Source of the DNA: Sandaracinaceae bacterium
Lineage (GTDB): Bacteria > Myxococcota_A > Polyangia > Polyangiales > JADJQN01
Assembly: GCA_947483975.1 (NCBI GenBank)
Contig: CANKOL010000006.1
Location: 1 to 37,382, forward strand
Length of the DNA: 37,382 nt
Direction of reading: 5' to 3'
The stretch's first letter is position 1, and each line of letters starts with the position of its first letter. The position numbers and the translations under genes were made by a program. The notes below the pieces were generated by a model, which saw only the letters and a program-made list of their open reading frames with translations, did no database searches and was not told where the DNA came from. This document shows positions 1,540 to 36,424 of the stretch, piece by piece.

Positions 1540-3537
1540 GTGCGCTCGAATACGCTGAAGGTGCTCGCCGTTGACGCCAGCGCCGAGGAACTCACCGCGC
1601 TTCGCGCCACGCTGCGCGAGCTTCTCCCGTCGACCACGCTGCTGACCGCGCTCGACGGCGCGAGCGCCCTCATGCTCGCCACGACCGAGGACCCCGACGT
1701 CATTTTGCTCGACCTCGCCCTGCCTGGCCCTACGGGCCTCGAGGTGTGTCGGCGCCTCAAGGCGGACGAGCGCCTGAAGGACATCCCCTTGGTCTGCATG
1801 ACCGCCCAGCGCACCGACCGAGAGCACAGGCTCCAGGCGGTCGAGGCGGGGGCCGATGGCTTCCTGTCGAAGCCCCTCGACGACGGGGAGGTCGTCGCGC
1901 TCCTGCGCAGCATGGCCAAGCTGCGGGCGGCGTACCGCCTGCGCAGCCTCGGGCGAGAGGAACTCGCCGCCCTCGTCGCCGAGCGCACCCGCGAGCTCGA
2001 GCTCGAGCTCGTCGCACGAACGCACGTCGAGCAGGCGCTGCGCGAGAGCGAGACGCGCTACCGAGCGCTCGTCGCCGGGGCGAACGACGGAATCTTCCTG
2101 ATCTCCCCTGAGGGCGACCTCGTCGAGGTGAACGAGTCCTTCGCGCGGATGCACGGCTGGACGCGCGAGGAGCTGCAGCGGCTGACCCTGGCTGACCTCG
2201 ACACGCCCGCGACGGCGGCGCTCGCTCCGGCGCGGATCCGCCGGATCCTGAGCGGCGAGCCTCTGACCTTCGAGGTCGAGCACCTCCACAAGGAGGGGCA
2301 CTCGTTCTCCCTCGAGGTCTCGAGCAGCCTCGTCCACGTCGGGGGAAACCCCTACATCCTGGCGGTCCACCGCGACATCACCGAGCGTAAGCGGCTGCAA
2401 GCGGGCCTCGAGCGAAGCGACCGGCTCGCGAGCCTCGGCATGCTGGCGGCGGGCGTCGCCCACGAGATCAACAACCCGCTCGCCTATGTGCTGTCGAACA
2501 CCTCGTTCGCGATCGACGAGCTGCGCGTTCCCGGCGCGATCGATGACCCGCTGCGGCTTCGAGAGATCGTCACCGCGCTCGTCGAGGCGGTCGACGGCGC
2601 GCACCGCGTCCGGCGTATCGTCCGCGATCTCAAGGCGCTCTCCCGCCCCGACGAGGACCGCACGAGCCGGGTCGACGTCGAGAAGGTGCTCGAGTCTTCG
2701 CTCGCCATGATCGCCAACGAGATCCGCCCGCGGGCACGCCTCGTGCGGGACTTCGCCGGAGTCCCGCCGATCGAGGCGAACGACGCGCGCCTCGGTCAGG
2801 TGCTCCTCAACCTGCTGGCGAACGCAGCGCAGGCGATCCCCGAGGGGCACCCGAACCGCCACGAGATTCGCGTGTCGACGCGCATCGAGCCGGAGGGCCG
2901 CCTCTGCATCGAGATCCGCGACACCGGCGGCGGCATCCCCGCCAACATCCTGGCGCGCATCTTCGACCCGTTCTTCACCACCAAGCCCGTGGGGGTCGGC
3001 ACTGGGCTAGGCCTCGCGATCTGCCACAGCCTCATCGAGCAGATGGGCGGCGAGATCTTAGTCGAGAGCGCCGTCGGCAAGGGCACGACGTTCCGCGTCC
3101 TGCTGCCGACCGTCGGCCCCTCGCAGCACGCCGCGCCGACGAGCGAGGCGCCCGTCCTGCTGCGGCGCGGTCAGGTGCTCGTCGTCGACGACGAGCCGCT
3201 CGTCGGCAAGGCGCTCGTGCGCCTGCTGTCCCGCGAGCACGACGTCACGCTGCTGGCCTCGGCCCGCGACGCGCTCGACAGGCTGCGCGGCGGCGAGCAC
3301 TTCGACGCGATCGTGTGCGACCTGATGATGCCCGAACTGAGCGGCATGGACCTGCACGACGAGGTCTTCGCGTTCGCCCCGGACCAGGCGCAGCGCATGA
3401 TCTTCGTGACCGGTGGCGCCTACAGCACGGCCTCCCGCACGTTCCTCGAGCGCGTCCCGAACATCCGCCTCGACAAGCCCATCAACGAGGCAGAGCTTCG
3501 TCGCGCGCTCCACACGCACCTGGCCGAGCGCCCCTAA
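1540..3537 (+). CDS. Hybrid sensor histidine kinase, REC-PAS-HisKA-HATPase-REC
   Basis: N-terminal receiver (VILLDLALPG, FLSKP), PAS (VNESFARMHG...RDITERK), H-box GVAHEINNPL, N-box NLLANAAQA, G1/F/G2 boxes (DTGGG, FDPFFTTK, GTGLGL), C-terminal receiver (VVDDE, IVCDLMMP, DKP). No TM helices, so probably cytoplasmic. Confidence 0.95.
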   Translation: MRSNTLKVLAVDASAEELTALRATLRELLPSTTLLTALDGASALMLATTEDPDVILLDLALPGPTGLEVCRRLKADERLKDIPLVCMTAQRTDREHRLQAVEAGADGFLSKPLDDGEVVALLRSMAKLRAAYRLRSLGREELAALVAERTRELELELVARTHVEQALRESETRYRALVAGANDGIFLISPEGDLVEVNESFARMHGWTREELQRLTLADLDTPATAALAPARIRRILSGEPLTFEVEHLHKEGHSFSLEVSSSLVHVGGNPYILAVHRDITERKRLQAGLERSDRLASLGMLAAGVAHEINNPLAYVLSNTSFAIDELRVPGAIDDPLRLREIVTALVEAVDGAHRVRRIVRDLKALSRPDEDRTSRVDVEKVLESSLAMIANEIRPRARLVRDFAGVPPIEANDARLGQVLLNLLANAAQAIPEGHPNRHEIRVSTRIEPEGRLCIEIRDTGGGIPANILARIFDPFFTTKPVGVGTGLGLAICHSLIEQMGGEILVESAVGKGTTFRVLLPTVGPSQHAAPTSEAPVLLRRGQVLVVDDEPLVGKALVRLLSREHDVTLLASARDALDRLRGGEHFDAIVCDLMMPELSGMDLHDEVFAFAPDQAQRMIFVTGGAYSTASRTFLERVPNIRLDKPINEAELRRALHTHLAERP

Positions 3538-3679
3538 TCACGGCTCGACGCCACCGCGTCGCCTGACTCCCGGCCCGTAGCGCGCCCCGCGTCAGCGCCC
3601 GAGCGCCGCCGCGTTGACTTCCAGACGTCCGCCAGCACGCTCCCGGGTCAGGTTACTTCCTTCCCCCGGAGCCTCGCCG

Positions 3680-6088
3680 ATGCGCTCTTCCCGACTGTTC
3701 GCAGTGTTCGCCGTCAGCTCGCTCCTCGTCTCTGCCGCCTGTGGCGGGACCCCGGAGGACCGCCCCGACAGCGCCGTCGACGCCGCCACCCCCGACGCTG
3801 CGCTCGACGCTTCGAGGCCTGATGGTGCCGTCGACGCTGGATCGGACGGCGCGGTGCTGGCCGACGCGGGCGATGACGCCGCGCTTCCCGAGCTCGACGC
3901 GGGCGATGACGCCGCGCTTCCCGACGTCGACGCCGGCTGCACCTCGAGCGCAGCCTGCGAGGACGGCGACCCCTGCACGCTCGACACCTGCGACTCCGGC
4001 ACCTGCAACTCGGTGCCTGTCGACCCTGACGACGGCGACCCCTGCACCGTGGACGGGTGCGATCCGGTCGTGGGCGTCACGCACACCGCCGTGCTGACGG
4101 ACGACAGCGACGTCTGCACCGTGGACGGCTGCGATCCGGTCACCGGCGTCACGCACACCGCGGTATTCACCGACGATAGCGACGCCTGCACCGTGGACTC
4201 GTGCGACCCGGTCACCGGCGTCGCGCACACGCCGGTCAGCGTCGACGACAGCAACGCCTGCACGGCCGACTCCTGCGCTCCCGCGACGGGCATCGCCCAC
4301 ACGCCCGTCAGCGTCGACGACAGCAACGCTTGCACGGCCGACTCCTGCGCGCCGCTGACGGGCATCGCGCACACGCCCGTCAGCGTCGACGACAGCAACG
4401 CCTGCACGACCGACTCCTGCGCGCCGGCGACGGGCATCGCGCACACGCCCGTGAGCGTCGACGACGGCAGCGTCTGCACCGTGGACTCCTGCGACCCGAC
4501 GACGGGCGTCGCGCACACGCCGGTCAGCACCGACGACGGCAACGGTTGCACGACCGACTCCTGCGACGCGACGACCGGCGTCGCGCACACTCCGGTGAGC
4601 GTCGATGACAGCAACGCGTGCACGCTGGACTCCTGTGCGCCCGCGACCGGCGCGGTGACGAACCTTCCGCTCACCCTCGGAACCCCCTGCAGCCAAGGCC
4701 TCGGCGTCGTGTGTGACGGCCTCGGCGCCTGCGTCGCCTACCCGGCGGTCGCCTCCACCACCCCGGCGGACGCCACCTCCGCGGTCGCGACCACCAGCCT
4801 CGCGGTGACGTTCACGACGGCGATGCGCCCCACGACCCTCACGGCTCAGACCGTGGCAGGCGCCTGCACCGGCAGCGTCCAGGTCTCGCTCGACAACTTC
4901 GCGACCTGCATCGCGCTCGCCTCGGCTTCCCCGGTCATGTCTGGCGGGGACACCGTCGCGACGCTGACCGCCGCCCCCGGGTTGCTCGTCAACCGCACCT
5001 ATCAGATCCGCGTGACGACCGCCGCCGCCGGCGCGACGGGCCTCCCGCTCGCCGCTCAGTTCACGACGCCCCTCGGCTTCATCACGGGCAGCCCCGACCT
5101 CTGCGCCGGGTCCGTGGTGATCGCGCAGGTGTACGGCGCTGGCGGGAACGTAGGCGCGCTCGTGCGCAACGACTACGTCGTGCTCCACAATCGCGGCGGT
5201 TCCGCCGTGAACCTCACCGGCTGGTCGGTGCAGTACGCGAGCGCGACGGGGACGAGTTGGGGGGTGGGCGCCCTCGCCGGAAGCATCGCCTCCGGGGGTT
5301 ACTACCTCGTCCAGGGCGCGAGCGGCGGTGCTGTTGGGGCCTTGCTGCCCACTCCGGACGCCACGACCAGCAGCAATCTGAGCGGCACGGTGGGCAAGGT
5401 CGCCCTCGTCACGAACACGACGGCCCTTGCGGTCGCGTGTCCGACGGGCGCTCCGATCGTCGACTTCGTCGGTTACGGCGCGACGACCTGCTTCGAGGGC
5501 ACCACCGCGACCCCCGCGCCTTCCAACACGACCGCCGTCCTCCGCGCGCAGACCGCCTGCGCCGACGTCAACAGCAACGGCGTCGACTTCGCGGTGGGAG
5601 CGCCCACCCCGCTGAACAGCGCCAGCCCCGTCGCGGTCTGCGCCTGCGCCGCGCTCGACGAGTCGGGCGTCGCCGCCGAGGCCGACTATTGCAACGTCCA
5701 GTTCCCGCTCTCGCTGAGCCTCGCGGCCGGCGCTGCGAGCGGCAACGTCTTCGGGCAGCTCTACGAGCTCGGCACGACCGAAGCGGCCGGCTCCTCGTCG
5801 GCCGTCCGCGCCCAGCTCGGCTTCGGCCCCCCCACCGCGAACCCCGAGTACGAGGCCGGCTGGTCGTGGACCAACGCCACCTACAACGTCCAGGTCGGCG
5901 CGAACGACGAGTACCAGGCGTCCTTCACGGCGCCCGGCTCCGGCTCGTACCGGTACGCCTACCGCTTCAGCCTCGACAGCGGCGTCAGCTGGACCGTCTG
6001 CGACCAGAACGCGGGCGACGGCGGAGCCGGTTCGAACGCCGGCCTCACGTTCGACCTCGCGAGCCTGCCCGTGCTGACCGTGCCGTAG
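3680..6088 (+). CDS. Secreted lipoprotein: acidic linker, ten ~24-aa Dictyostelium (CTDC)-like repeats, Ig-like domain, lamin-tail domain, C-terminal beta-sandwich
   Basis: ATG 3680 gives a signal peptide ending in lipobox LVSAA-C. Lamin-tail motif 'VVIAQVYGAGGN...NDYVVLHNRG...VNLTGWSVQYAS'. The C-terminal 'VFGQLYE.GTTE...AQLGFGP...NDEYQASFTAP..G.YRYAYRFSLD' module resembles domains of extracellular amylopullulanases. Confidence 0.85.
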   Translation: MRSSRLFAVFAVSSLLVSAACGGTPEDRPDSAVDAATPDAALDASRPDGAVDAGSDGAVLADAGDDAALPELDAGDDAALPDVDAGCTSSAACEDGDPCTLDTCDSGTCNSVPVDPDDGDPCTVDGCDPVVGVTHTAVLTDDSDVCTVDGCDPVTGVTHTAVFTDDSDACTVDSCDPVTGVAHTPVSVDDSNACTADSCAPATGIAHTPVSVDDSNACTADSCAPLTGIAHTPVSVDDSNACTTDSCAPATGIAHTPVSVDDGSVCTVDSCDPTTGVAHTPVSTDDGNGCTTDSCDATTGVAHTPVSVDDSNACTLDSCAPATGAVTNLPLTLGTPCSQGLGVVCDGLGACVAYPAVASTTPADATSAVATTSLAVTFTTAMRPTTLTAQTVAGACTGSVQVSLDNFATCIALASASPVMSGGDTVATLTAAPGLLVNRTYQIRVTTAAAGATGLPLAAQFTTPLGFITGSPDLCAGSVVIAQVYGAGGNVGALVRNDYVVLHNRGGSAVNLTGWSVQYASATGTSWGVGALAGSIASGGYYLVQGASGGAVGALLPTPDATTSSNLSGTVGKVALVTNTTALAVACPTGAPIVDFVGYGATTCFEGTTATPAPSNTTAVLRAQTACADVNSNGVDFAVGAPTPLNSASPVAVCACAALDESGVAAEADYCNVQFPLSLSLAAGAASGNVFGQLYELGTTEAAGSSSAVRAQLGFGPPTANPEYEAGWSWTNATYNVQVGANDEYQASFTAPGSGSYRYAYRFSLDSGVSWTVCDQNAGDGGAGSNAGLTFDLASLPVLTVP
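3863..3924 (+). repeat. Exact 29-bp direct repeat, 33-bp period (DAGDDAALP x2)
   Basis: gacgcgggcgatgacgccgcgcttcccga at 3863-3891 and 3896-3924. Confidence 0.9.
3956..4675 (+). repeat. Coding tandem repeat, 72-bp period, ten units
   Basis: A more divergent first unit at 3956, then units starting at 4028, 4100, 4172 ... 4604. Consensus DDSNACTxDSCxPxTGxAHTPVSV. Confidence 0.93.
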
Positions 6089-6598: not shown

Positions 6599-7192
6599 AT
6601 GAGGGAGTCAGGTCGCAGCCGTGCCTCGATGAGTGCTCGCCCCACAATGGGGTTGTGGGCTGCAATCGTCCTATTGTTCGCCTTGCCGGTCGTGGCTTCG
6701 TGCGGCGGCGGGGGAGAGCCCGCTCATGCGCAGGGCGGGGAGCACGCCGGTGAGCCGTCGGTCCCCGACGCCGACATCGTCATTCCGCCGCGCACGACGC
6801 AACTCGCCACGTACCCCTGCGTCGAGCAGTGCCACGCCGACCGCGTGCCGAACGCCACCCCCCGTCCGCTCCGCGAGTTCCACTCCGCCAAGCACATCGA
6901 GCATGGCGACACGACCTTCTGGTGCAACTTCTGTCACAACTTCGACAACCTGAACACGCTCCACCTGCTCGACGGCCGCACGGCGTCGTTCGACGAGTCG
7001 CAGCGCCTCTGTGGTGAGTGTCACGGGGACAAGCGCCGGGACTGGGCCCTCGGCATCCACGGGCTGCAGACGGGCGCCTGGAACGGCGAGAAGACCCGCC
7101 GCAGCTGCACCGCCTGCCACGACCCGCATTCGCCACGCCGTCCGAGGTTCCAAGCCCTGCCGGCGCCGCACCCCCGCACAGGAGCGCGATGA
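6599..7192 (+). CDS. Tetraheme c-type cytochrome lipoprotein, CbcS-like
   Basis: AGGAG at 6585-6589 precedes ATG 6599 (alternative starts GTG 6593, ATG 6629). Lipobox VVAS-C. Heme motifs CVEQCH (CX3CH), CNFCH, CGECH, CTACH. Stop overlaps the next ATG. Confidence 0.88.
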   Translation: MRESGRSRASMSARPTMGLWAAIVLLFALPVVASCGGGGEPAHAQGGEHAGEPSVPDADIVIPPRTTQLATYPCVEQCHADRVPNATPRPLREFHSAKHIEHGDTTFWCNFCHNFDNLNTLHLLDGRTASFDESQRLCGECHGDKRRDWALGIHGLQTGAWNGEKTRRSCTACHDPHSPRRPRFQALPAPHPRTGAR

Positions 7193-8163
7193 GCGACGAT
7201 CAGAATACCTGCAGCGAGATCACGGACCAGAACCTCATCGACGATGAGGAACTCGCCGCGTCGCTGGTCGCCGGCGTCGAGATGGCACAGGCCACTCGAC
7301 GAAGCTTCCTCGCAACGATGGCTAGCGCTGCGGGGGCCGCGGTCGTCGCCTCCACCGGCTGCGACAGCGCTGTTTTCGAGAAGTACACTCAGAAGCACTA
7401 CAAGGAACTGTCGGCCGCCGACAAACTGAAGGTCATCGCGCGCATCGAGGCCGAGGCTCATGAGCGCTTCGGCATCGACGTGAAGGTGTCCGACCCGCAG
7501 CCGCTGCCAGGTGTCGGCTTCGCCTACGCGCTGAACCTGTCCTACTGCATCGGCTGTCGACGTTGTGAATACGCCTGCGCCCGCGAGAACAATACCTCGC
7601 GCGACCCCGAGATTCACTACATCCGCGTCCTCGCCATCGAGAAGGGCACGATGTCGGTCGAGGAGTCGGAGAGCAACTACACGGGAGCGGTCCCGGAGCC
7701 CGACAAGTACTACATGCCGGTGCAGTGTCACCAGTGTGACCATCCGCCATGCGTCCGCGCGTGCCCGGTTGAAGCGACGTGGAAAGAGAAGGACGGTCTC
7801 GTCGTCGTCGACTACGACTGGTGCATCGGCTGCCGCTACTGTGAGGCTGCCTGCCCATATTGGGCACGACGCTTCAACTTCGCTGAGCCGACGATCCGTC
7901 CGTCCGAGATCAATCCCATCCAGGGCCTCCTGAGCAACCGGGTCCGGTCGGTCGGCGTGATGGAGAAGTGCACGTTCTGTCTGCACCGCACGCGCAAGGG
8001 CCTCTACCCAGCGTGCCTCGAGGTCTGCCCGACGGGCTCGCGCAAGTTCGGGAATCTGCTCGACCCGAACAGCGAGGTCCGCCAGATCATCCAGAGCAAG
8101 CGCATCTTCGTGTTCAAAGAGGAGCTCGGGACCATCCCGCGCTTCTACTACTACTTCGACTGA
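7189..8163 (+). CDS. 4x[4Fe-4S] electron-transfer subunit, NrfC/DsrO/CbcT family, Tat-exported
   Basis: ATGA overlap with the upstream gene. Twin-arginine TRRSFL followed by a hydrophobic stretch. Cys groups CIGCRRCEYAC, CHQCDHPPCVRACP, CIGCRYCEAACP, KCTFC...PACLEVCP. C-terminal 'KEELGTIPRFYY'. Confidence 0.93.
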   Translation: MSDDQNTCSEITDQNLIDDEELAASLVAGVEMAQATRRSFLATMASAAGAAVVASTGCDSAVFEKYTQKHYKELSAADKLKVIARIEAEAHERFGIDVKVSDPQPLPGVGFAYALNLSYCIGCRRCEYACARENNTSRDPEIHYIRVLAIEKGTMSVEESESNYTGAVPEPDKYYMPVQCHQCDHPPCVRACPVEATWKEKDGLVVVDYDWCIGCRYCEAACPYWARRFNFAEPTIRPSEINPIQGLLSNRVRSVGVMEKCTFCLHRTRKGLYPACLEVCPTGSRKFGNLLDPNSEVRQIIQSKRIFVFKEELGTIPRFYYYFD

Positions 8164-8192
8164 GCGAGCGCTCCTTGACCCACACGCAATCC

Positions 8193-8819
8193 ATGCCTTC
8201 CCACGTGCTCGGACGTCTTGCGGCGGTTCTCTCGGTGGGGCTCGCTCTGCTCACCGCGTGCGAACCCAAGCCGACCTCCGAAAACCGTCCGCTGGCCGTC
8301 CGCGCGGCGGGAAAGCGCCTCGAGGACATCGCAGCCGGTGACATCTCCGGCAAGATCGGCGGGCGGCAGTTTCGCGCCGCTGATGTGAAGGTCCGAGTCG
8401 AGACGATGGCAGGTCGCGAGCGGGTCGATCTGCTCGTGTCGAGCGACCGCTTGACGCACTGCGGCCTGCCGGACCAGGCCCACGGTGCACGGGTGTGGGT
8501 TCGCTGGAAGGGTACCGTGCCGACTGACGGTACACCTCAGCGCCTCGAGCCTGGGCAGCATGGCGCGATGAGTGTCAACTATGAGTTCTTCGAGCATGAC
8601 CAGTGGGTGGCGCACAGCGGCGGTGCTGCGGTGGTCAGCATCACGCAGGCGTTTGGCGGGTACAGTGGTCGGCTGTGGATCTGCTTCGACGATGGGCGCG
8701 ATAGCTGCGTGACGGGCACCTTCACTGGCACCGAGTGTCGCTCCGAACTCGACGTCGATGACTCGGTCTGGGGAGCGGGAAGAGCAGAGATTCAGACTCC
8801 GACCAAGCGTGCTGAGTAG
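8193..8819 (+). CDS. Hypothetical lipoprotein (208 aa) inside the cytochrome operon
   Basis: ATG 8193, hydrophobic signal ending LLTA-C. The mature part looks beta-rich, has four Cys and no heme motif. C-terminal part of the 7968..8819 ORF. Confidence 0.75.
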   Translation: MPSHVLGRLAAVLSVGLALLTACEPKPTSENRPLAVRAAGKRLEDIAAGDISGKIGGRQFRAADVKVRVETMAGRERVDLLVSSDRLTHCGLPDQAHGARVWVRWKGTVPTDGTPQRLEPGQHGAMSVNYEFFEHDQWVAHSGGAAVVSITQAFGGYSGRLWICFDDGRDSCVTGTFTGTECRSELDVDDSVWGAGRAEIQTPTKRAE

Positions 8820-9031
8820 GTCTTCAGATGTGATGTGAAGGTGCGCGAGCGCGTCGGTGGCACGAGCCTCCACTAGCCTCTCGAGCGAGCGCGTGCCCCA
8901 GCCGTGACCCCATCCGTGGGCGCGAAGCTGCGGTCACCGGCCCAGCAAGCGCTCGCAGGACGCTCGAACGAGAGAGGCACCGGCGTGCCACCGAGCACGG
9001 GTTGGGTGGTCTCGCAGAGGAAGGAAAGTAC

Positions 9032-9166
9032 GTGTCTGTTCTGCGTGCGCAGCCAGTGGATGTCGGTCCGGACGCGCTCGGCGACCTGGTGGCTGCGCGT
9101 GCTCCGCGGGCAGACGTTTTCCTCGCGGCGCAGCGGACGTTCGCGCCGGCCGTGGGGTGCTCATGA
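9032..9166 (+). CDS. Candidate 44-aa small ORF (MSVLRAQPVDVGPDALGDLVAARAPRADVFLAAQRTFAPAVGCS)
   Basis: Purine-rich GAGGAAGGAAAG at 9017-9028 precedes GTG 9032. Its TGA (9164-9166) overlaps ATG 9163 of the next gene. Too short to appear in the ORF track. Confidence 0.35.
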   Translation: MSVLRAQPVDVGPDALGDLVAARAPRADVFLAAQRTFAPAVGCS

Positions 9167-10434
9167 CCGCCGTGTGGCGTGTGCGCGCGCTCGGGTTCGC
9201 GGTGCTCGGCGCAGCCTGGATGCTCGGGGGCGTGCCGGTTGCCGCGGCGGATGAGACCTGCGTCGAGTGTCATCGTATGCAGCGCGTAGCGCGGCTGCGC
9301 GCACCCGCCGAGCAGCTCCCCGAGAGCATCCACGGGCGCAATCACGTCACCTGCAGCGATTGCCACGGAGGGCGTCCCGACGAGCCATCCGCGCGAGCCC
9401 ACGACCTCGAGGCCGGCTTCAGGGCTCGCTTCGCGGCTGGTGCGCAGCCGGCCATCTGCGGTGGCTGTCACTCGGATGCCCTGCGAATGGGGGCGGTCGA
9501 GCCCGGCCTCCCGACCGACCAGCTCCAACTCTACAACAGCAGCGTCCATGGGCGCGCGTTCGCTGCGGGCAACACGCGCGCTGCGACGTGCGCTGCCTGT
9601 CATGGTGCGCACGATGTGCGAGCCGTGAGCGATCCGGCGTCGCCGGTCAGTCTGCACAACATTGCCGGCACGTGTGGTCGTTGCCACTCCGATCGGACGC
9701 TCATGAGCGGGCTCGGTATGCCGCATGACGAGGAGCGCCAATGGCGCCACAGCGTGCACGGGCGGGCGTACGAGCGATGGATTGCGCGCTCCGGACCAGG
9801 TGCCTTGGCGCGCGACGAGCGGCACCCGCCGACGTGCAGCGACTGTCACTCCGACCACGCCGTAGCCGACCGGACCGCCGCCGTCGCGGGCTGTAGGCGG
9901 TGCCATGGAGAAATGTGGCAGTCCTTCGAGGCTGGGCCCCACAAGGTGGGCTTCGATCGGATGGGCTTCTTGCCCTGTGTGGATTGCCACGGGAGCCACG
10001 AGGTCTCGTCGTCGGACGCGAGCTTCATCGGCGTCGACCGCGACACGGTGTGCAGACGCTGCCACTCCGAGGGCCAGCGGATGTTCGAGACCATTCGGGA
10101 GCTCGGCGTCGAGGTCGGCGCGGCTGAGCACGCCGCCGACAACGCGCGGGCGGCCCTCGTCGGCGCGCCGGTTGGCGCACTCGAGTCCAAGCTTCGCCCC
10201 ATCGACGAGGCCCGCCACGCTCTCCGCCTCGCGATTCACTCGCTGAACAAAGACCGGATCCGCGCGGCCGCCACGCTGCTGAAGACGAGGGCGGAGAGGA
10301 TCCCAGTGCCGACTGACTCGTCGTCGGCCGTGGTCGCGGTGGTGGCGAGCTGGGGGCCACCGGCGGCGCTGGTCCTCGTGGGTGTCGCCCTGTTGGTCTT
10401 CGCCTTCTGGCGGCGGCGCGGAGGAAAGAAATGA
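9163..10434 (+). CDS. Nonaheme c-type cytochrome with signal peptide and C-terminal membrane anchor
   Basis: Nine CXXCH motifs (CVECH, CSDCH, CGGCH, CAACH, CGRCH, CSDCH, CRRCH, CVDCH, CRRCH) with recurring S(I/V)HG ligand motifs. Signal ends VAAA-D. Helical stalk, then TM helix and RRRGGKK. Confidence 0.92.
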   Translation: MTAVWRVRALGFAVLGAAWMLGGVPVAAADETCVECHRMQRVARLRAPAEQLPESIHGRNHVTCSDCHGGRPDEPSARAHDLEAGFRARFAAGAQPAICGGCHSDALRMGAVEPGLPTDQLQLYNSSVHGRAFAAGNTRAATCAACHGAHDVRAVSDPASPVSLHNIAGTCGRCHSDRTLMSGLGMPHDEERQWRHSVHGRAYERWIARSGPGALARDERHPPTCSDCHSDHAVADRTAAVAGCRRCHGEMWQSFEAGPHKVGFDRMGFLPCVDCHGSHEVSSSDASFIGVDRDTVCRRCHSEGQRMFETIRELGVEVGAAEHAADNARAALVGAPVGALESKLRPIDEARHALRLAIHSLNKDRIRAAATLLKTRAERIPVPTDSSSAVVAVVASWGPPAALVLVGVALLVFAFWRRRGGKK

Positions 10435-12626
10435 CCTCGGGTCCCCGCTGGCCGCTCGTGATCGCGGGTGTTCTGTCCCTCGTGGCGGGTGCGATCGTCT
10501 TCGCGACGCCTCGCATACAACACCGTTTGAACAGCTCCGCCTACTGCGCGAGTTGTCACACGGAAGCCGCGTCTCACACAGGTCGTCACTCACGGACGAC
10601 CTGCCAATCGTGTCATCCGCTCCCGACGGGCCAAACGGTTCGCCTCGTGTGGGCGGCGGTCTCGGGCGGTCGCGGGATGCCTCCGCACGGGCGGCTCGAC
10701 GAGACCTCCTGTACGACTTGCCACGAGAAGAACGAGCGCACATGGAGCGCGCTCGTTCGCACGGAGGGGCATTCTTCTCACGCGATCGCCCCGGTCTTGG
10801 TCCGCTGCGTGCGTTGCCACTCCTCGGGGCTCCACGCGAAGCCGACCGCGCGCGAGCGGTGCGAGTCGTGCCATCAGAACACGATCACGCGCCGGGACGG
10901 AGTTGCGACGGTCGAGTGCCAACGCTGTCACCTCTTTGGGCCGCGTCGTGGCCCCGAGCAGGCCAGGCTGCCGGGCTCTTGGGGCGCCGACATCTCAGGG
11001 GCGAACGTGCATGGCTCGGCCGACTGCCGCCTGTGCCACAATCCGCATCGACCGGCGGCGCAGCAAGAGGCCGCGCGCGCGGTCGTCTGCACGAGTTGCC
11101 ACCGCGGTGAGCTCGCGCGTTCGGTCACGCACGCCCCCGCGAATCACCAAGACTGCAACAAGTGTCACCGGCCTCATGGGCTGAGGGCTGAGCTCGCGAC
11201 CGCTTGTGCGGTGTGTCATACGGCACCGCGTTCGCGAGGCACGCTCCACGACCCCGGCGTCCCGCCGGAGATGCGGAACGTCGCGAGCATCGCCCCCATC
11301 CTCGCCGCGCGTACCGGGCCGCCGCCGCCCGTTCCCGGCGTGACCCACGGCGGGCGCTGCGCGAACTGCCACGAGCCGCACGCGTGGACGCCCAACCGCA
11401 ACATCTGTCGGAGCTGTCACGCGGACAAGGCGGCGAAGGTCGATCGCTTGCCGGCCAACACGCACAGCTGCATCGGTTGTCACGAGCCGCACTCCCCGCC
11501 GCCGGCCGCGAGTGTGTGTGGCGAGTGCCACACAGCGAACGCGTCGACTATCCGTTCTGCACCGGCGCGCCATCGTGACTGCCTCTCGTGCCACCAGGCC
11601 CACGAAGGTCGACCGAACGCCGCGACCGTCTGCGGCGCGCGCTGCCACCAGGCTCAAGCCAACGCGCTACGCGATGGGCAGCCGCGACACCGCGCGTGCA
11701 CGACCTGCCACGGCGCCCACGCCAATCCCATCGCGGGCGCGGCGACTCGTTGCCAGACCTGCCACTCGAGCGAGTGGACGCAGTTCAGCCAAGGCAACAA
11801 GCACCAGACCTGCGCTCGCTGCCACTCGAATCATCAGTTTACGCGGGCGAACGCCCAGGGGCGTTGTCAGACCTGCCACCAAGCGCCGGGCGCGCCCGGA
11901 GCCTCTCATCGTGGGCAGTGTCTGACGTGTCACACGCCGCACGCCGCGGGGCGCGGACCCGCAGCGAATTGCGCGTCCTGCCACGGTAGTCGGATCCGGC
12001 CGACCGTGCCGCAACACGCCGCGAACTGCGCTGGCTGCCACAAGCCTCATCTCGCGGCAGCGACCGCCAGCACCCAGTGCGGGACGTGCCACGCGGACAA
12101 GGCCCGCGTCGCCGCCGCCTGGCCGACGAACGCGCCCCACGGCCCAGGTCGTTGTGCCGAGTGTCACACGGCCCACGACGAGGGCCGCCCGCGGCAATGC
12201 GCGTCCTGCCACGCCAACAAGGCGAATCCGGGCCACATGGGCGCCCACCCAAACTGTATCGGCTGCCACGCGCCGCACGTGGCCCCCCCCGCCGGCCCGA
12301 GCCCCGCGCGCTGGTGGGGCCGGTGTGGCACCTGCCACACGGCTGAGGCGCGGATGGCCGCGACCGGTCGGCCCGAGCACCAGCAGTGCGCCAACTGCCA
12401 CAATCGGCCAGGCCGCGTGCCGCCGACCTGCATCAGCTGTCACACCCGGATCACCACGGTCGGCGCCCATCAGCGCCCCGAGCATCGTGACTGCCTCACT
12501 TGTCACACGAGTCACGGAACCACTCCGCCGACTCGCGCCAAGTGTGTCGCGTGCCATACGGATCGACGCACCCACTTCGCAGACGCGCCTCAGTGCCAAT
12601 CCTGCCACCCGTTCCGACCCGATTGA
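10431..12626 (+). CDS. 33-heme c-type cytochrome, N-terminally membrane-anchored, NapC/NirT-like head plus diheme repeats
   Basis: Hand count of 32 CXXCH plus one CX3CH (CGARCH) in 731 aa. Single N-terminal hydrophobic helix. ATGA overlap with the upstream gene. Confidence 0.93.
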   Translation: MTSGPRWPLVIAGVLSLVAGAIVFATPRIQHRLNSSAYCASCHTEAASHTGRHSRTTCQSCHPLPTGQTVRLVWAAVSGGRGMPPHGRLDETSCTTCHEKNERTWSALVRTEGHSSHAIAPVLVRCVRCHSSGLHAKPTARERCESCHQNTITRRDGVATVECQRCHLFGPRRGPEQARLPGSWGADISGANVHGSADCRLCHNPHRPAAQQEAARAVVCTSCHRGELARSVTHAPANHQDCNKCHRPHGLRAELATACAVCHTAPRSRGTLHDPGVPPEMRNVASIAPILAARTGPPPPVPGVTHGGRCANCHEPHAWTPNRNICRSCHADKAAKVDRLPANTHSCIGCHEPHSPPPAASVCGECHTANASTIRSAPARHRDCLSCHQAHEGRPNAATVCGARCHQAQANALRDGQPRHRACTTCHGAHANPIAGAATRCQTCHSSEWTQFSQGNKHQTCARCHSNHQFTRANAQGRCQTCHQAPGAPGASHRGQCLTCHTPHAAGRGPAANCASCHGSRIRPTVPQHAANCAGCHKPHLAAATASTQCGTCHADKARVAAAWPTNAPHGPGRCAECHTAHDEGRPRQCASCHANKANPGHMGAHPNCIGCHAPHVAPPAGPSPARWWGRCGTCHTAEARMAATGRPEHQQCANCHNRPGRVPPTCISCHTRITTVGAHQRPEHRDCLTCHTSHGTTPPTRAKCVACHTDRRTHFADAPQCQSCHPFRPD

Positions 12627-12663
12627 TGCTGCGCAGCGCGCGCGCACGCCCTGGAGGCTCCCA

Positions 12664-13962
12664 ATGCTCATCGTCCGCTACCTGAACTTCTGGCTCCAGA
12701 TGGTCCTGTTCGCAGCGCGCGGCGGGAAGCGGTTCTATGCGTGGGTCCTCTCGCTCGCGCTCGTCGCGGTCTTCGGCGCGTATCACTACTACGAGCACGT
12801 GGTCGTTGGGCTCAGCGTCACCAACATGAGTGACCAGGTGAGCTGGGGCATCGGGATCGCGAACTTCGTGTACTTCGTCGGCGTCGCGGCGTCCGCGGCG
12901 CTGATCATCACGCCCGCCTACGTGTTCATGCGCAAGGACATCAAGGAGGTTGTGCTCATCGCGCAGGTCCTCGCGTTCGTCGCGGTCGTCCTCTGCCTGC
13001 TGTTCATCGTCACCGACATGGGCCGTCCCGAGCGCCTCTGGCACATCATGCCGCTGCTCGGGAAGCTCAACCTGCCGGGCTCCCTCCTCGCTTGGGACGT
13101 GGTCGTGTTCAATGGATACATCGTCCTGAACCTGCACATCCCCGGCTACCTCCTCTGGAAGCGCTACAACGGCGTCGAGCCGAACCCGTGGGCGTACCTC
13201 CCGTTCATCTTCATCGCGATGGGCTGGGCCGTGAGCCTCCACGTCGTGACCGCGTTCCTGCTGGGTGGCCTCGGCAGCCGCCACTTCTGGAACACTGCCA
13301 TCCTCGCCCCACGCTTCCTCATCACGACGGGCGCGTCTGGCCCGGCGCTGCTGACGCTGATCTTCTACGCCGTGCGCCGACTCACCCCGCTTCACGTCAA
13401 GGACAGCGTCTTCGAGTACCTGCGGACGGTCATGCAGGTGACGCTGCCGATCAACTTCTTCCTGATCGGCTGCGAGGTCTTCTACGAGTTCTACACGGGC
13501 AAGCTGACCTCGGCGTCCGCGCAGTATCTCTACTTCGGGCTCCATGGGTACCATGGCCTCACGGTCATCATCTGGTCGGCCGTCGCGATGAACACGATCG
13601 CGATGGCCCTCTTGCTCAGCAGCCGGACGAAGCTCCTCTCGTGGGTTCACTTCCTCGCGTGCGGGCTCACGATCTTCGGGATTTGGATCGAGAAGGGAAT
13701 GGGCCTGATCTTCCCCGGGTTCACGCCGACTCCACTCGGCGAAATCGTCGAATATTTCCCCTCGCTAGCCGAGACGTCGGTGAACGTCGGCGTGCTCGCC
13801 GTGGGAATACTGCTCTTCACCCTCATGGCGAAGGTCGTGATCGGGATTCAGTCGGGAGAACTCCGCCTGCCGGGGGGGGACGCGCTGCCCACTCTTCCAG
13901 TGCCGAGCGAGGATTCGGCGCCTGTCGACACGGTCTCCCCGGAGCCGACGCCGACTGCGTGA
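12664..13962 (+). CDS. NrfD/PsrC-family quinol-interacting membrane subunit (DsrP/CbcU-like), copy 1
   Basis: GGAGG at 12653-12657 precedes ATG 12664. About 10 TM helices. Motifs 'GLSVTNMSDQVSWG..IANF..FVG.AA', 'DMGRPERLWH', 'S.L.WD', 'IWIEKG', 'EYFPS..E'. Confidence 0.93.
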   Translation: MLIVRYLNFWLQMVLFAARGGKRFYAWVLSLALVAVFGAYHYYEHVVVGLSVTNMSDQVSWGIGIANFVYFVGVAASAALIITPAYVFMRKDIKEVVLIAQVLAFVAVVLCLLFIVTDMGRPERLWHIMPLLGKLNLPGSLLAWDVVVFNGYIVLNLHIPGYLLWKRYNGVEPNPWAYLPFIFIAMGWAVSLHVVTAFLLGGLGSRHFWNTAILAPRFLITTGASGPALLTLIFYAVRRLTPLHVKDSVFEYLRTVMQVTLPINFFLIGCEVFYEFYTGKLTSASAQYLYFGLHGYHGLTVIIWSAVAMNTIAMALLLSSRTKLLSWVHFLACGLTIFGIWIEKGMGLIFPGFTPTPLGEIVEYFPSLAETSVNVGVLAVGILLFTLMAKVVIGIQSGELRLPGGDALPTLPVPSEDSAPVDTVSPEPTPTA

Positions 13963-14400
13963 GCCGCTGAGCTACGCTGCCGTCGACCCAGCTCGTCGTT
14001 CACGAGGCGCACTCCGTGTTCGGAGCCAGTGAAGGACCGAAGGGCGGACGTTTGTGGGCGCCGCCGTCGACGCCGTGTAGGAACTCAGAAGGGCGGCGAC
14101 GAGCGCGACCGTCGGGGCCCCTGTTCTCGGCGCGGCGGCCTCGTCGGCGATAGCGGGTCCTTCTCGTGGGCGGTCGGTCAAGAAGAACAGGGTCCAGCTC
14201 CTCGGTGGGTCTCAGGCCCCTGACGATCAGGTGCCGATTCCACCGAACGTCGCCGTGCGCAGGTGCCCCTTCCGCGAGGAATCCGGCGGAGGGCCTCGTC
14301 CCATCACCTCACCGTGCTCGGGCGGGGCTTCGCGGTGCCCTCGGCCCTGGTCCGGCGAGCGCCGTCGCACGCCGTCGCACGCTTCCTGACCCACGAACGA

Positions 14401-14483
14401 CAACGCCTCGCTCGATGGTCGAGCGAGGCGTTGGGTGTTGGTCCCGGCGTTCCAGGGCGAGACGCGCTGCCGTCCGTCTCGCC
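14401..14483. terminator. Two hairpins between the convergent NrfD genes (terminator or 3'-stabilising structures)
   Basis: Perfect 15-bp stem CAACGCCTCGCTCGA-tgg-TCGAGCGAGGCGTTG (14401-14433) and 9-bp stem GGCGAGACG-N10-CGTCTCGCC (14456-14483), just downstream of the stop at 14497. No U-tract. Confidence 0.6.
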
Positions 14484-14496
14484 TCGAGTCACACGC

Positions 14497-15888
14497 TCAG
14501 GGCTTGCTCTCGCGTGGGGTACGCGCACCGCTGCGCGGAACGTATGCGGGCTGTTGCGCGTGGGGCTGGTGCGGCGCGAACGCCTTGCCGAGGCGCGCAG
14601 GCTGCGGCTGAGGCTTGTAGAGGCCGGGGCGGACAGGTTCGGGGCGCGGTTGGAAGAACGCTCGGTGGGCGAAGGGATCTGGAAGCCGGAGCTCCCCGGT
14701 CTGGATGCCGACCGCCACCTTGGCCATGATCGTGAAGATCAGGGTGCCGATCGCAAGCACGCCGCAGCTGACCGCGATCTCCCCGAGTGACGGCGAGTAT
14801 TCGACGATCTCACCGAGCGGCGTGGGAATGAAGCCCGGGAAGATGAGTCCCATCCCCTTCTCGATCCAGATGCCGAACACTGCCAGGCCACAGGCCGTCA
14901 AGTGCATCGGGGTCAGGATCTTCGTGCGCTTGTTGACGAGGAGGGCGATGGCGAGGACGTCCATCACGATGGCCGTCCAGAAGATCTTCGTGAGGAAGCC
15001 GTTGCTGCCAAACCCGAAGTAGAGATAGCGGCCCGACGCGGCGGACAGCATTCCCATATACAACTCGTGGAAGGCCTCGCAGCCGAGGAGGAAGAGGTTC
15101 ACGGGCAGCGTGACCTTCATGACCTCCTTGAGGTACACGAAGACGCTGTCCTTCACCTTCAGCGGCGTGTTCAGCCGTACGATGTAGAAGATGAACGTGA
15201 GCAGCGCCGGGCCGGACGCGCCAGCGCTGATCAGAAATCGCGGGGCGAGGATCGCGGTGTGCCAGAAGTGCCTGGCGCCGAGGCCGGCGAGCAGGAACGC
15301 AGTCACCACGTGAATGCTCAGTGCCCAGCCGATGGAGATGAACACGAACGGCAGATATGCCCAGCCGTTGGGCTCGATCCCGTTGTAGCGCTTCCATAGG
15401 AGGTAGCCCGGGATGTGCAGGTTCAGGACGATGTAGCCGTTGAACACCAGCACGTCCCACGAGAGCATCGAACTCGGGAGGTTGAGCTTCCCGATGGGCG
15501 GCATGAGGTGCCAAAGCCGCTCGGGACGGCCCACATCGGTGACGATGAACATCAGGCAGAGGATGATCGCGACGAACGCGAGGATCTCGCCGAGCAGCAC
15601 GACCTCTTTGATGTCGGCGCGGTGGTAGACGTACGCCGGTGTGACGAGCACCGCCGCGGCCGCCGCAACACCCACGAAGTACACGAAATTCGCGATGCCG
15701 AGGCCCCAGCTCACCTGGTCGTTCATGTTGGTGACGCTGAGACCGATCGTGATGTGCTCGTAGTAGTGAAACGCACCGTACAGCGCGATCAGCGAGAGCG
15801 ACACGACCCAAGCGTAGAAGAGCCTCCCTCCGCGCGCGGCGAAGGTGACCATGTGAAGCAAATACGACAGATAGCGGACGATCAGCAT
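14497..15888 (-). CDS. NrfD/PsrC-family membrane subunit (DsrP/CbcU-like), copy 2
   Basis: Collinear paralogue of 12664..13962, from the shared MLIVRYL start to GIQxGELRLP. Contains 'DVGRPERLWH'. GGAG precedes the ATG. Longer Pro/Gln-rich tail. Confidence 0.93.
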   Translation of the reverse strand: MLIVRYLSYLLHMVTFAARGGRLFYAWVVSLSLIALYGAFHYYEHITIGLSVTNMNDQVSWGLGIANFVYFVGVAAAAAVLVTPAYVYHRADIKEVVLLGEILAFVAIILCLMFIVTDVGRPERLWHLMPPIGKLNLPSSMLSWDVLVFNGYIVLNLHIPGYLLWKRYNGIEPNGWAYLPFVFISIGWALSIHVVTAFLLAGLGARHFWHTAILAPRFLISAGASGPALLTFIFYIVRLNTPLKVKDSVFVYLKEVMKVTLPVNLFLLGCEAFHELYMGMLSAASGRYLYFGFGSNGFLTKIFWTAIVMDVLAIALLVNKRTKILTPMHLTACGLAVFGIWIEKGMGLIFPGFIPTPLGEIVEYSPSLGEIAVSCGVLAIGTLIFTIMAKVAVGIQTGELRLPDPFAHRAFFQPRPEPVRPGLYKPQPQPARLGKAFAPHQPHAQQPAYVPRSGARTPRESKP

Positions 15889-16177: not shown

Positions 16178-17038
16178 TCAGATGGTGGTCTTGGAAGGGA
16201 CCGCGATCTTACGAAGCAGCTCGGCGCTCGAGTTGCCCATCATGTCGACGACCGAAGACGGCACGACGACGACGGTCGAATTGTGCCGCATTCCCTCGAG
16301 CAGCACGCTCATCGCCCGCAGATGCAAGGCGGTCGGGTTGTCGATGTACGACTTTGACGACTCGGCGAACATCTCCGAGACCTTGCGCTCAGACTGGGCG
16401 AGGATGATTCGGGCCTGGCCTTCCTTGTCCGCCTGCGCCTGCATCGACATGGCGTCCTGCAGGCCCTGCGGGATCCGCACGTCCCGGATCTCGACCGCGA
16501 CGACCTGAATGCCCCAAGGCTCGGTCCTCGCGTCGATGATGCCGCGGAGCATCTCGTCTACCTTGTCGCGGCCGGAGAGCATCAGCGCGAGCTCGGTCTT
16601 GCCGATGACCTCACGCAACGCAGTCTGGGCCGCCCAGAAGATGGCGTCGCGGTAGTACTCGAGCTCGAGCGCCGCCTTCGCGGGATCGACGACGCGCCAG
16701 AAGAGAACGGCGTCCACGTCCATCGGGACGGTGTCCTTGGTCAGCGTCTGCTCAGCGTTGAACGGCGTCGCCACGGTGCGGGTGTCCACCCACATCGTGA
16801 TCGTGTCGAAGAGCGGGAGCACGAAGAACATTCCCGGGCCCTTGAGGCCGTGGAACTTACCGAGGCGCAGGACGACGGCCTTTTGCCACTGCTTGCCGAC
16901 GCGCACGCTGAGCGCGATCAGCACCGCGAGGGCGACGAGGACACCGGGGATGAGTGGATCTCGGAGCGTGGCCCCGACCAACCCAGCCAGCCCGAGGAGT
17001 GCCAGCACGATACTGACGATCAGCGGATGGAGAACCAT
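16178..17038 (-). CDS. SPFH/band-7 (stomatin/slipin) family membrane protein
   Basis: N-terminal TM hairpin; 'AVVLRLGKF...GPG.FFVLP..D', 'LTKDTVP.DVDAVLFW.V.DP', 'AQTALREVIG', 'WGI.V..VEIRDV.IP..LQDAM..QAQA'. Confidence 0.93.
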   Translation of the reverse strand: MVLHPLIVSIVLALLGLAGLVGATLRDPLIPGVLVALAVLIALSVRVGKQWQKAVVLRLGKFHGLKGPGMFFVLPLFDTITMWVDTRTVATPFNAEQTLTKDTVPMDVDAVLFWRVVDPAKAALELEYYRDAIFWAAQTALREVIGKTELALMLSGRDKVDEMLRGIIDARTEPWGIQVVAVEIRDVRIPQGLQDAMSMQAQADKEGQARIILAQSERKVSEMFAESSKSYIDNPTALHLRAMSVLLEGMRHNSTVVVVPSSVVDMMGNSSAELLRKIAVPSKTTI

Positions 17039-23129: not shown

Positions 23130-23455
23130 GACCGGCCGCTCGGGGCAGGCCCTCGTCGAGACCGATCGCACCGAGCGGTGGCCTGACGCTCGGGCGGAGG
23201 GCCTCGGCCCCGCGCCAGATCAGCGCGGGCCCAGCCGCGGGCGCCGTCTGCGGCGTCTCGCCGAGCGCCTCACGGAGGTGTCAGCGGCGCCCCCACCATC
23301 GCCTTCTGGACGACGAGCGGCACGTCGGGCGGCACGTTCTCGCGCACGCCGCCCGAGAGATCGTCGAGCACGACGACGTCGTGCCGACGCGCGCGGAGGG
23401 CACGCACGAGGTGCGCGCCGAGGAACCCCGCGCCGCCGGTGACGAGGACCGTCAA
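23130..23455 (-). pseudogene. NAD-dependent epimerase/dehydratase remnant
   Basis: TTG 23455 overlaps the upstream stop. Rossmann start TVLVTGGAGFLGAHLV...VVVLDDLSGG.REN, stop at 23272-23270 after 61 codons. A degenerate C-terminus-like segment (LREALGETPQT...IGLDEGLP) follows in another frame. Left boundary approximate. Confidence 0.75.
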
Positions 23456-25674: not shown

Positions 25675-25766
25675 GAGTTCCTCCGAGAAGCTCGAGCGGC
25701 GCCAGCGTAACACGGAGGGAACGCGCGCCCATTGCTCCGCCGCGGCGCCTCGCCGCAGGAGCGAAC

Positions 25767-27167: not shown

Positions 27168-27253
27168 GGACACGCCGCAGCGTGCCTCATGCCGTCTCTC
27201 GTTTCTACCGAGGAGCGCGCTGCGCGACTAGCGCACAGCGCGCGTCACGCGGC

Positions 27254-31759: not shown

Positions 31760-31860
31760 GAATATTCTCCGCTCCGGTGTCAGCACCGGAGTCAATCGTT
31801 CGACAGTGGGATGGAGGTGCTGCCGTGCTGCGCGAGCGCGCGCGGCCGCCCTGAGCTCGC

Positions 31861-36240: not shown

Positions 36241-36424
36241 GGGGTCTACCTTGGGCGAGGGCCTTGGGGGGGCTGAAGAGGCCACGCCGCGACGGAGCTG
36301 ATCGTCGAGCGGGGGCCGAGGCAATAGCACGTCGAAGCGCACCGTGGTACCGGGCCGCCCCCTCCGGCGTGCCTCGGCGACGCGTTTGGCTCGTTACGGC
36401 GCCTCTCGCCGGCCGGGCGAAGCC

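Follow-up and report, generated by a model that had tools for sequence, protein, structure and literature searches.

A multiheme cytochrome and DsrO/DsrP-like gene cluster from a Sandaracinaceae bacterium, probable inner half of a conserved myxobacterial system for extracellular electron transfer

The window analysed in this study is a stretch of 37,382 nucleotides from a Sandaracinaceae bacterium (GCA_947483975.1, CANKOL010000006.1), which represents an entire contig, C6, of a genome of 5.29 Mb that is 81% complete and divided into 524 contigs. Positions 6599 to 15888 carry seven genes, encoding a tetraheme lipoprotein, an iron-sulfur (FeS) protein with 4x[4Fe-4S], a second lipoprotein, a 9-heme and a 33-heme cytochrome, and two NrfD-family membrane subunits (Table 1). 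We conclude that this cluster is probably one half, that of the inner membrane and periplasm, of a conserved, envelope-spanning myxobacterial system for extracellular electron transfer from quinol to the cell surface. A preliminary description of the same DNA had proposed an NrfCD-type module that is linked to quinone and to large periplasmic cytochromes, and in this it is supported both by the protein families and by their co-conservation. The names carried by homologs point to a Polyangiales-like host, in keeping with the myxobacterium-like organism first proposed, here one from a lake.

In the mechanism that we favour quinol would be oxidised at the DsrP-like NrfD subunit, and the 4x[4Fe-4S] protein would hand the electrons on to the tetraheme lipoprotein, from which they would travel to the membrane-tethered 9-heme and 33-heme cytochromes and across the periplasm, then from the 33-heme protein to a 13-heme cytochrome inside an outer-membrane barrel, and onward through 10-heme, 8-heme and MtrC-type surface cytochromes to an extracellular acceptor, for example Fe(III) or humic quinones. 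The outer half would be supplied in trans, in this organism, from contig C3 (and C64). What the data show directly is gene content, co-conservation, the fold of the barrel, family assignments and trees; every contact, the direction of flow, the acceptor and the joint working of the two halves here are inferred.

Conservation of the cluster in related genomes

A strict first search of 300 other genomes of the order, whose count is a lower bound, recovered the 33-heme gene in 37; the NrfD subfamily is present in 85 and the barrel family in 49. Among the 37 genomes with the 33-heme gene the same family searches found the NrfD subfamily in 35 and the barrel in 31, so that the large cytochromes are co-conserved with the NrfCD module (35/37 against 85/300 genomes), as the preliminary description had proposed. 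DNA around the 33-heme gene was fetched for all 37 genomes and we counted linkage from these loci and the family searches; the counts are descriptive, carry no statistical test and come from kin that are not independent. In 31 genomes (32 with one weak match) a copy of the 33-heme gene has a barrel gene no more than 20 kb away, an NrfD gene is on the contig of the 33-heme gene in 30, and an MtrC-like gene occurs in the fetched DNA of 18; of the five genomes without a linked barrel two have one on a different short contig, and for the other three none was found. In 35 of the 37 the gene immediately preceding the 33-heme gene is the 9-heme gene.

The usual order in these loci is MtrC-type decaheme, 8-heme, tetraheme, FeS protein, NrfD, lipoprotein, 10-heme, barrel and 12/13-heme, often followed by Rieske and cytochrome b genes, and then 9-heme and 33-heme. 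In a second type of cluster the Rieske, cytochrome b, 9-heme and 34-heme genes are divergent from the core, and ImcH-like and CbcL-like genes (labels that represent our reading of domain content) and a more distant barrel are nearby. Two of these decahemes from relatives exceed the OmcA/MtrC cut-off (285 and 379 against 209 bits), and the relatives' cytochrome b has its best matches in ExtP. The closest relatives of the window cluster are three genomes of one genus (78% for the FeS protein, about 70% for NrfD, 53-57% for the 33-heme protein), in which the order is tetraheme, FeS protein, lipoprotein, barrel, 13-heme, 9-heme and 33-heme, with NrfD next in one of them; this is the order of the window with two genes, barrel and 13-heme, added between lipoprotein and 9-heme. 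In genome G016 (L031:2817-6549) the barrel and 9-heme genes look frameshifted, by sequencing error or decay.

The lack of a catalytic subunit, already pointed out for the window, extends to the relatives: with catalytic queries from the organism's own genome and related ones, 58 loci (844 kb) from these genomes contained molybdoenzymes in 2 cases and neither hydrogenase nor HAO-like or CWxCK NrfA-like genes, and no catalytic subunit is consistently linked.

The outer half and the origin of the two halves

The statement that there is no porin is true of the window, in which the barrel, molybdoenzyme, NrfA and hydrogenase families had no match among the 24 and 14 open reading frames (ORFs) scanned; it is false for most of the relatives and for the genome as a whole. 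On the minus strand of contig C3 (L113:6699-13385) 10-heme, barrel, 13-heme and 8-heme genes stand in a row, the 13-heme cytochrome having 353 amino acids and 12+1 motifs. The barrel protein has no match in Pfam or NCBIfam. Its model, built from 49 sequences, is all-beta with a predicted local distance difference test score (pLDDT) of 88.9, and its top fold matches are exclusively membrane barrels (Z 19.6 for FyuA, 18.5 for FimD and 16.3 for MtrB, with root mean square deviations of 4.6-5.4 over 334-352 aligned residues); from the strand list and these matches we read the protein as a predicted plugless outer-membrane barrel of about 22 strands. The four C3 genes adjoin a radical SAM gene and what by eye look like complex I genes.

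Further candidates for the outer half are found on other contigs. A gene on C64 passes the OmcA/MtrC model TIGR03507 (314 bits, cut-off 209.3). Contig C150 (L115:7626-10300) has a second barrel candidate of 486 amino acids, which a profile of the C3 barrel family matches weakly (probability 80%), followed by a 13-motif cytochrome related to that of C3. Genes for cytochrome c maturation are present in the genome. As separate observations, C320 (L117:1-4128) has an open frame of 1375 residues that includes 10 hemes and a part resembling MtrC, and whose protein scores 185 bits against TIGR03507, below the cut-off, and C100 (L114:8867-11542) encodes an 18-heme cytochrome with Geobacter CxxxxCH domains.

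Phylogenetic trees were midpoint-rooted and for most genes calculated with FastTree, leaving out partial genes shorter than 60% of the query. In these trees the tetraheme, FeS, lipoprotein, 9-heme and 33-heme proteins all group with the genus of the three closest relatives (support 0.997-1.0), and those encoded by the four genes on C3 fall with a different family (0.85-1.0; for the barrel, a Shimodaira-Hasegawa-like approximate likelihood ratio, SH-aLRT, of 96-97). Neither the 33-heme gene nor the barrel, the NrfD subfamily or MtrC was found in three genomes of the same family (90-94% complete). Two acquisitions with complementary loss would be the simplest reading of these trees. No trace of the barrel gene, or of 13-heme, Rieske or cytochrome b genes, was seen in the 337-bp gap at 8820-9156, the NrfD gap or the upstream DNA (best E 0.036).

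The tetraheme, FeS and NrfD core

Judged by its best models, the core is DsrO/DsrP-like. The best NCBIfam model for the FeS protein is DsrO (NF045797; 165 bits, below the cut-off of 200), and NrfD1 and NrfD2 score 334 and 346.5 bits against DsrP (NF045798), both below the cut-off of 350; the QrcD model gives the NrfD proteins only 42-47 bits against a cut-off of 570, and ActC only an E of 5e-4. Residues of NrfD were compared with those listed as quinone-site and proton-path residues of DsrP1 (PMC8076601) by spacing only, without a reference sequence. On this basis Asp118, Ser140, Asp145, His193, Thr196, Arg206, Thr211, Arg217, Thr/Ser221, Glu271 and Lys344 correspond respectively to DsrP1 Asp106, Ser124, Asp129, His176, Thr179, Arg189, Thr194, Arg200, Ser204, Glu254 and Lys329; the position of DsrP1 Tyr52 is a Gly in this NrfD. 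The tetraheme protein has a hydrophobic stretch at 17-35 that ends at a Cys; its homologs (n=31) have four canonical heme motifs in 14 cases and 3+1 in the other 17.

At least 584 relatives of NrfD1 were confirmed in species genomes, of which the best 80 were examined in fetched DNA. The FeS gene is present in 77 of these 80 loci and the tetraheme gene in at least 73, adjoining the FeS and NrfD genes in most. An HAO-like octaheme accompanies the core in 27 loci; ImcH-like, CbcL-like, DmsE/MtrA-like or cluster genes do so in 26, no locus has both, and a further 27, some of them short, have neither. The first group consists of L037, L055, L070 and 24 more loci, from Planctomycetota and others, several of which also have a molybdoenzyme and a NapB-like tetraheme nearby, and it is possible that the core and octaheme form a nitrite-reduction module there. 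In Verrucomicrobiota (L043, L056, L082, L101 and others) the core stands by NapC-type 6-heme, cytochrome b-fused 11/13-heme and DmsE-like 7-heme genes, together with an unassigned protein of 800 amino acids that is a candidate barrel.

The preliminary description regarded two NrfD subunits as a feature of the design, a claim that we do not uphold, because the tree shows a lineage-specific duplication: NrfD1 and NrfD2 are sisters with support of 98/94. Both reading frames are intact, and the nonsynonymous (dN) and synonymous (dS) distances between them are 0.18 and 0.72 (dN/dS about 0.25). On this comparison NrfD2 is a local, inverted, lineage-specific duplicate of NrfD1, and since the duplication is local the pair is not a defining feature of the cluster. 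A metagenome scan for close relatives of the 33-heme gene gave two loci, one of them useful (L202, 79%), with one NrfD gene after the 33-heme gene and none in a further 1.9 kb. The whole core is duplicated in two other genomes. A heterodimer of the two NrfD proteins resembling ActC/ActF was considered and rejected, as the two copies retain the same set of residues and form a local pair. The stated oddity of the locus, no porin and two NrfD genes, is explained by rearrangement, and its parts are of known kinds.

The lipoprotein and the large cytochromes

Synteny and trees indicate that the lipoprotein is co-inherited with the module. It has a lipobox Cys and, in the alignment of 32 homologs, four invariant Cys, which probably form two disulfides; it has no match in Pfam, and its Atlas neighbours are all hypothetical. 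The 9-heme protein has a C-terminal membrane helix at residues 399-417.

The 33-heme protein starts with a membrane helix and two NrfH/NapC-like hemes, which are followed by a chain of 31 hemes spaced by about 19 residues; across 39 homologs the number of hemes varies from 27 to 34. A profile of its first 134 positions has NrfH as the best PDB match (2j7a_C, E 1.2e-11), and residues 10-79 match the NrfH model with an E of 1.8e-4. The Met of the CxxCHxM motif at heme 1 is absent here, where it is a Glu, and in close homologs; distant homologs, some of them named NapC/NirT, keep the motif. Since ImcH also departs from CxxCHxM (10.1101/2023.05.03.539133, where ImcH is treated), the Glu does not settle whether the head has the predicted quinol activity. 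In 110 aligned sequences the extra residue of the CX3CH site is absent from 100, and 32 non-motif His are kept in at least 70%. This number would suffice for 32 bis-His hemes, leaving one heme whose sixth site has another ligand or is open, and it fits what electron transfer hemes of the bis-His type need. The structure model (pLDDT 81, predicted template modelling score 0.44, helix at 7-33) is locally confident and globally loose; a fold search with it gave no match at E<=0.001, NrfH ranking first at an E of only 0.19. By sequence, the 4-, 9- and 13-heme proteins gave nothing informative against the PDB, and the single-sequence matches of the 33-heme protein were generic.

As a tentative extension of this picture, the 33-heme protein might be a single-chain wire, anchored in the inner membrane and starting from an NrfH/NapC head, that bridges the periplasm and docks on the 13-heme cytochrome held by the barrel, replacing diffusing shuttles in a hard-wired conduit from quinol to the surface. 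For MtrA, 10 hemes correspond to 104 Å (PMC4245776). On this scale the 33-heme protein, if extended, would measure up to about 34 nm. This is at or above usual periplasm widths.

Weighing the alternatives

Several observations speak against a quinol-to-surface system working in this organism. The genome has aerobic respiratory equipment (three heme-copper oxidase subunits and, on C84, separate from the window, a cluster like Alternative complex III, ACIII). The barrel was not found in 3 of the 37 genomes (G056, G077 and G084), in one of which about 47 kb were seen around the 33-heme gene. The core is not specific to extracellular transfer, because in 27 of the 80 loci it adjoins an HAO-like octaheme. 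The two halves may not dock, since they share neither contig nor lineage of origin; mis-binning of C3 is possible, and tetranucleotide ranks of 21 and 77 of 102 only argue against it. The 337-bp gap may split the transcript.

The strongest of the other explanations, which we still regard as unlikely, is a periplasmic capacitor, an idea proposed for Anaeromyxobacter (PMC2330069): the module would charge the 46 hemes from quinol when oxygen is short, for later discharge to the oxidases, and no barrel would be needed. The window cluster has lost its barrel and 13-heme genes, yet the inner genes are all intact in related strains; oxidases are present, and the three genomes just mentioned gave no barrel. 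Storage alone, however, fails to explain why most relatives link a barrel and surface-type cytochromes to the cluster and why this genome has them too. Because of these barrel and MtrC-type partners a wire is favoured over a pure capacitor.

It is distinctly unlikely that electrons run inward, from Fe(II), reduced humics or other cells through the barrel to quinone, or through the linked Rieske and cytochrome b proteins to oxygen. NrfD complexes do operate in both directions (PMC8076601), the host is aerobic, and Rieske and cytochrome b genes are inside the cluster in many relatives. Against this, relatives link the cluster to MtrC-family, ImcH-like and CbcL-like genes, as labelled by domain content, and no Rieske/cytochrome b pair of the relatives' type was found in this genome's cluster. 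MtrC-family, ImcH-type and CbcL-type genes are known from reducers.

That the core serves an unlinked soluble enzyme, such as a nitrite or sulfur reductase, and that the large cytochromes are separate from it, appears very unlikely. The 27 loci in which an HAO-like octaheme follows or precedes the core, and the nine of the 80 that have a shared molybdoenzyme family, would agree with such a role; the core and the large cytochromes nevertheless have a single common phylogeny, NrfA, DsrA and HAO-like proteins have no match in this 81%-complete genome, and the molybdoenzymes on C14, C23 and C66 and the hydrogenase on C46 lack a twin-arginine motif (by a simple pattern). The genome also has a formate dehydrogenase, and the NiFe hydrogenase genes (G000:C46:13166-20965) are accompanied by maturation genes and, by eye, an adjacent probable sensor kinase. 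Finally, the cluster could be an acquired island in decay that no longer functions, for which one could cite the outer genes deleted at the locus and the failure to find the cluster in 3/3 same-family genomes. This is hardly credible when all seven frames are intact, the NrfD copies have the low dN/dS given above, and RNA-library contigs fall, weakly, on pieces of five genes.

Anatomy of the locus

A re-check of ORFs and motifs returned the seven genes at the positions first given for them, and likewise the 46 heme motifs (44 CxxCH and 2 CX3CH: 3+1 in the tetraheme, 9 in the 9-heme and 32+1 in the 33-heme protein), the partial ATGA coupling, which is confined to overlaps at 7189 and 10431, and the convergent second NrfD, 68% identical to the first. 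Judged by the canonical CxxCH of homologs, both CX3CH sites are real heme sites. The other plus-strand genes of the cluster are separated by 29, 337 and 37 bp.

Table 1. Features of the cluster in the window.
Feature	Position	Strand	Basis or remark
Tetraheme c-type lipoprotein	6599..7192	+	3 CxxCH + 1 CX3CH; position like that of CbcS/'tetrahaem'
4x[4Fe-4S] protein of twin-arginine (Tat) type, DsrO-like	7189..8163	+	TRRSFL twin-arginine, four Cys groups, DsrO best model
Conserved lipoprotein, cofactor-free, no known family	8193..8819	+	Alignment of 32 homologs
337-bp gap with imperfect 28-bp hairpin at 8885-8956	8820..9156		Site of barrel and 13-heme genes in closest relatives
Nine-heme cytochrome	9157..10434	+	9 CxxCH, N-terminal signal, C-terminal membrane helix
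33-heme cytochrome	10431..12626	+	32 CxxCH + 1 CX3CH; NrfH/NapC-like start
NrfD1, DsrP-like membrane subunit of the NrfD family	12664..13962	+	DsrP NF045798, 334 bits
Perfect 15-bp hairpin between the convergent NrfD genes	14401..14433		Sequence scan
NrfD2, second DsrP-like NrfD	14497..15888	-	DsrP, 346.5 bits

The gene order is not an assembly error, since it recurs in Logan contigs from two lake studies that are not marked as possible sources: at about 97% identity they cover 7812-14211 and 7818-13875, including the junction of the lipoprotein and 9-heme genes, and one further contig covers 13933-17200 and reaches the second NrfD. The hairpin at 14401..14433 is a possible terminator and is absent from the list of the T-tail terminator scan; scans of the locus for sigma-70 promoters and T-tail terminators gave none above chance. 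In an RNA-library run short contigs fall on the FeS, lipoprotein, 9-heme, 33-heme and NrfD2 genes and on the 9/33-heme junction; this signal is weak, with DNA carry-over uncontrolled. Contigs are missing over the 3' part of the 33-heme gene and over most of NrfD1, and as contigs cannot rank genes this gap in coverage was not used.

Around the cluster, an SPFH/Band 7 gene (16178-17038) is on the same strand as NrfD2 and 289 bp upstream of it. Directly upstream of the cluster, 3614-6088 encodes a lipoprotein-like protein with nine Dictyostelium-type CTDC repeats and Ig-like and lamin-tail domains, preceded by an EspA/EspC-like hybrid kinase (1540-3537). The region 23452-36342 encodes several secreted proteins of very large size, in which DUF4215, MopE-type, nidogen, MAM and PPC domains occur.

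Relation to known systems

The closest counterpart of the core is the dsrOhPh-tetrahaem locus, described from cable bacteria, other Desulfobulbales and Gamma- and Betaproteobacteria, and also from genomes without sulfur metabolism, for which a speculative role in carrying quinol electrons to cytochromes of the periplasm was put forward (PMC13047784). In gene layout it is like the window, combining a tetraheme with DsrO and DsrP homologues apart from dsrMKJ. The differences are that NrfD is displaced 4.5 kb downstream in the window (it is adjacent in most relatives), and that the core is here accompanied by the lipoprotein and the 9- and 33-heme genes, to which relatives add barrel and MtrC-type genes; no TMH1 was noted. 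The likeness to Geobacter Cbc4 (CbcSTU, GSU0068-0070) that had been proposed for the window is confirmed as one of layout, shared with Cbc6: a c-type cytochrome, an FeS protein homologous to DsrO, as CbcT is, and a membrane subunit (PMC11434368, 10.1101/2021.04.15.440034). Cbc4 differs in being a three-gene cluster only. Membership of DsrMKJOP is not indicated, the DsrO and DsrP models being the best but below cut-off, with no DsrA match in the 81%-complete genome and no dsrMK in the window; for Alternative complex III and Qrc, neither an ActC/QrcD-type NrfD nor an ActB/QrcB molybdopterin-like subunit was found in the cluster.

The porin-cytochrome conduits (Anaeromyxobacter two-gene Pcc, Geobacter Pcc/Ext, Shewanella MtrCAB) resemble the outer half, which on C3 and in relatives, outside the window, has a barrel gene beside a periplasmic multiheme gene: they too have a barrel gene beside a 12-14-heme cytochrome of about 340-350 amino acids (338-344 in the pairs of Anaeromyxobacter), with extra cytochrome genes nearby and an MtrC-family decaheme (PMC4245776). 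Here, unlike in those conduits, a quinol-side module and a 33-heme protein share the cluster, and the barrel, which has no counterpart in Pfam or NCBIfam, is smaller than MtrB. The 33-heme protein begins like NapC/NirT/NrfH proteins (NrfH, CymA, ImcH), with a membrane helix and two hemes at NrfH-like spacing, and differs from them in its 31 further hemes and the missing CxxCHxM Met.

The preliminary description did not recognise the combination from any characterised system. This no longer applies to the core (PMC13047784) or to pairs of a porin and a 12-heme cytochrome (PMC4245776), and it stands for the whole cluster, which we found in no paper. Titles and abstracts gave none on the whole cluster or on a 33-heme NrfH-headed protein, in a search that mostly left subscription journals uncovered and did not extend to supplements; an abundance of novel multiheme clusters that include MtrC, ExtABC and CbcL is described for lake Myxococcota (10.1101/2022.03.26.485925), and the supplements of that paper may list these genes.

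Implications

These results give a genetic context to the orphan tetraheme-DsrO/DsrP module, whose part in cable bacteria is still undecided; since in this order it shares a cluster with a barrel and surface-type cytochromes, a role in passing electrons from quinol to the periplasm is supported and becomes testable. The 33-heme membrane-anchored protein is a candidate for a fixed periplasmic wire; if this were true, then together with the DsrOP-like module about 1 in 8 genomes of a mostly aerobic myxobacterial order would have a hard-wired quinol-to-surface conduit, whose halves could be recombined from different lineages. The data point to a complete, conserved cluster for extracellular electron transfer in 37 of the 300 sampled genomes of the order, with a barrel family that standard profiles overlook, and they suggest a capacity for electron exchange with extracellular solids in many myxobacteria, with a bearing on the redox cycling of iron and humic substances in lakes.

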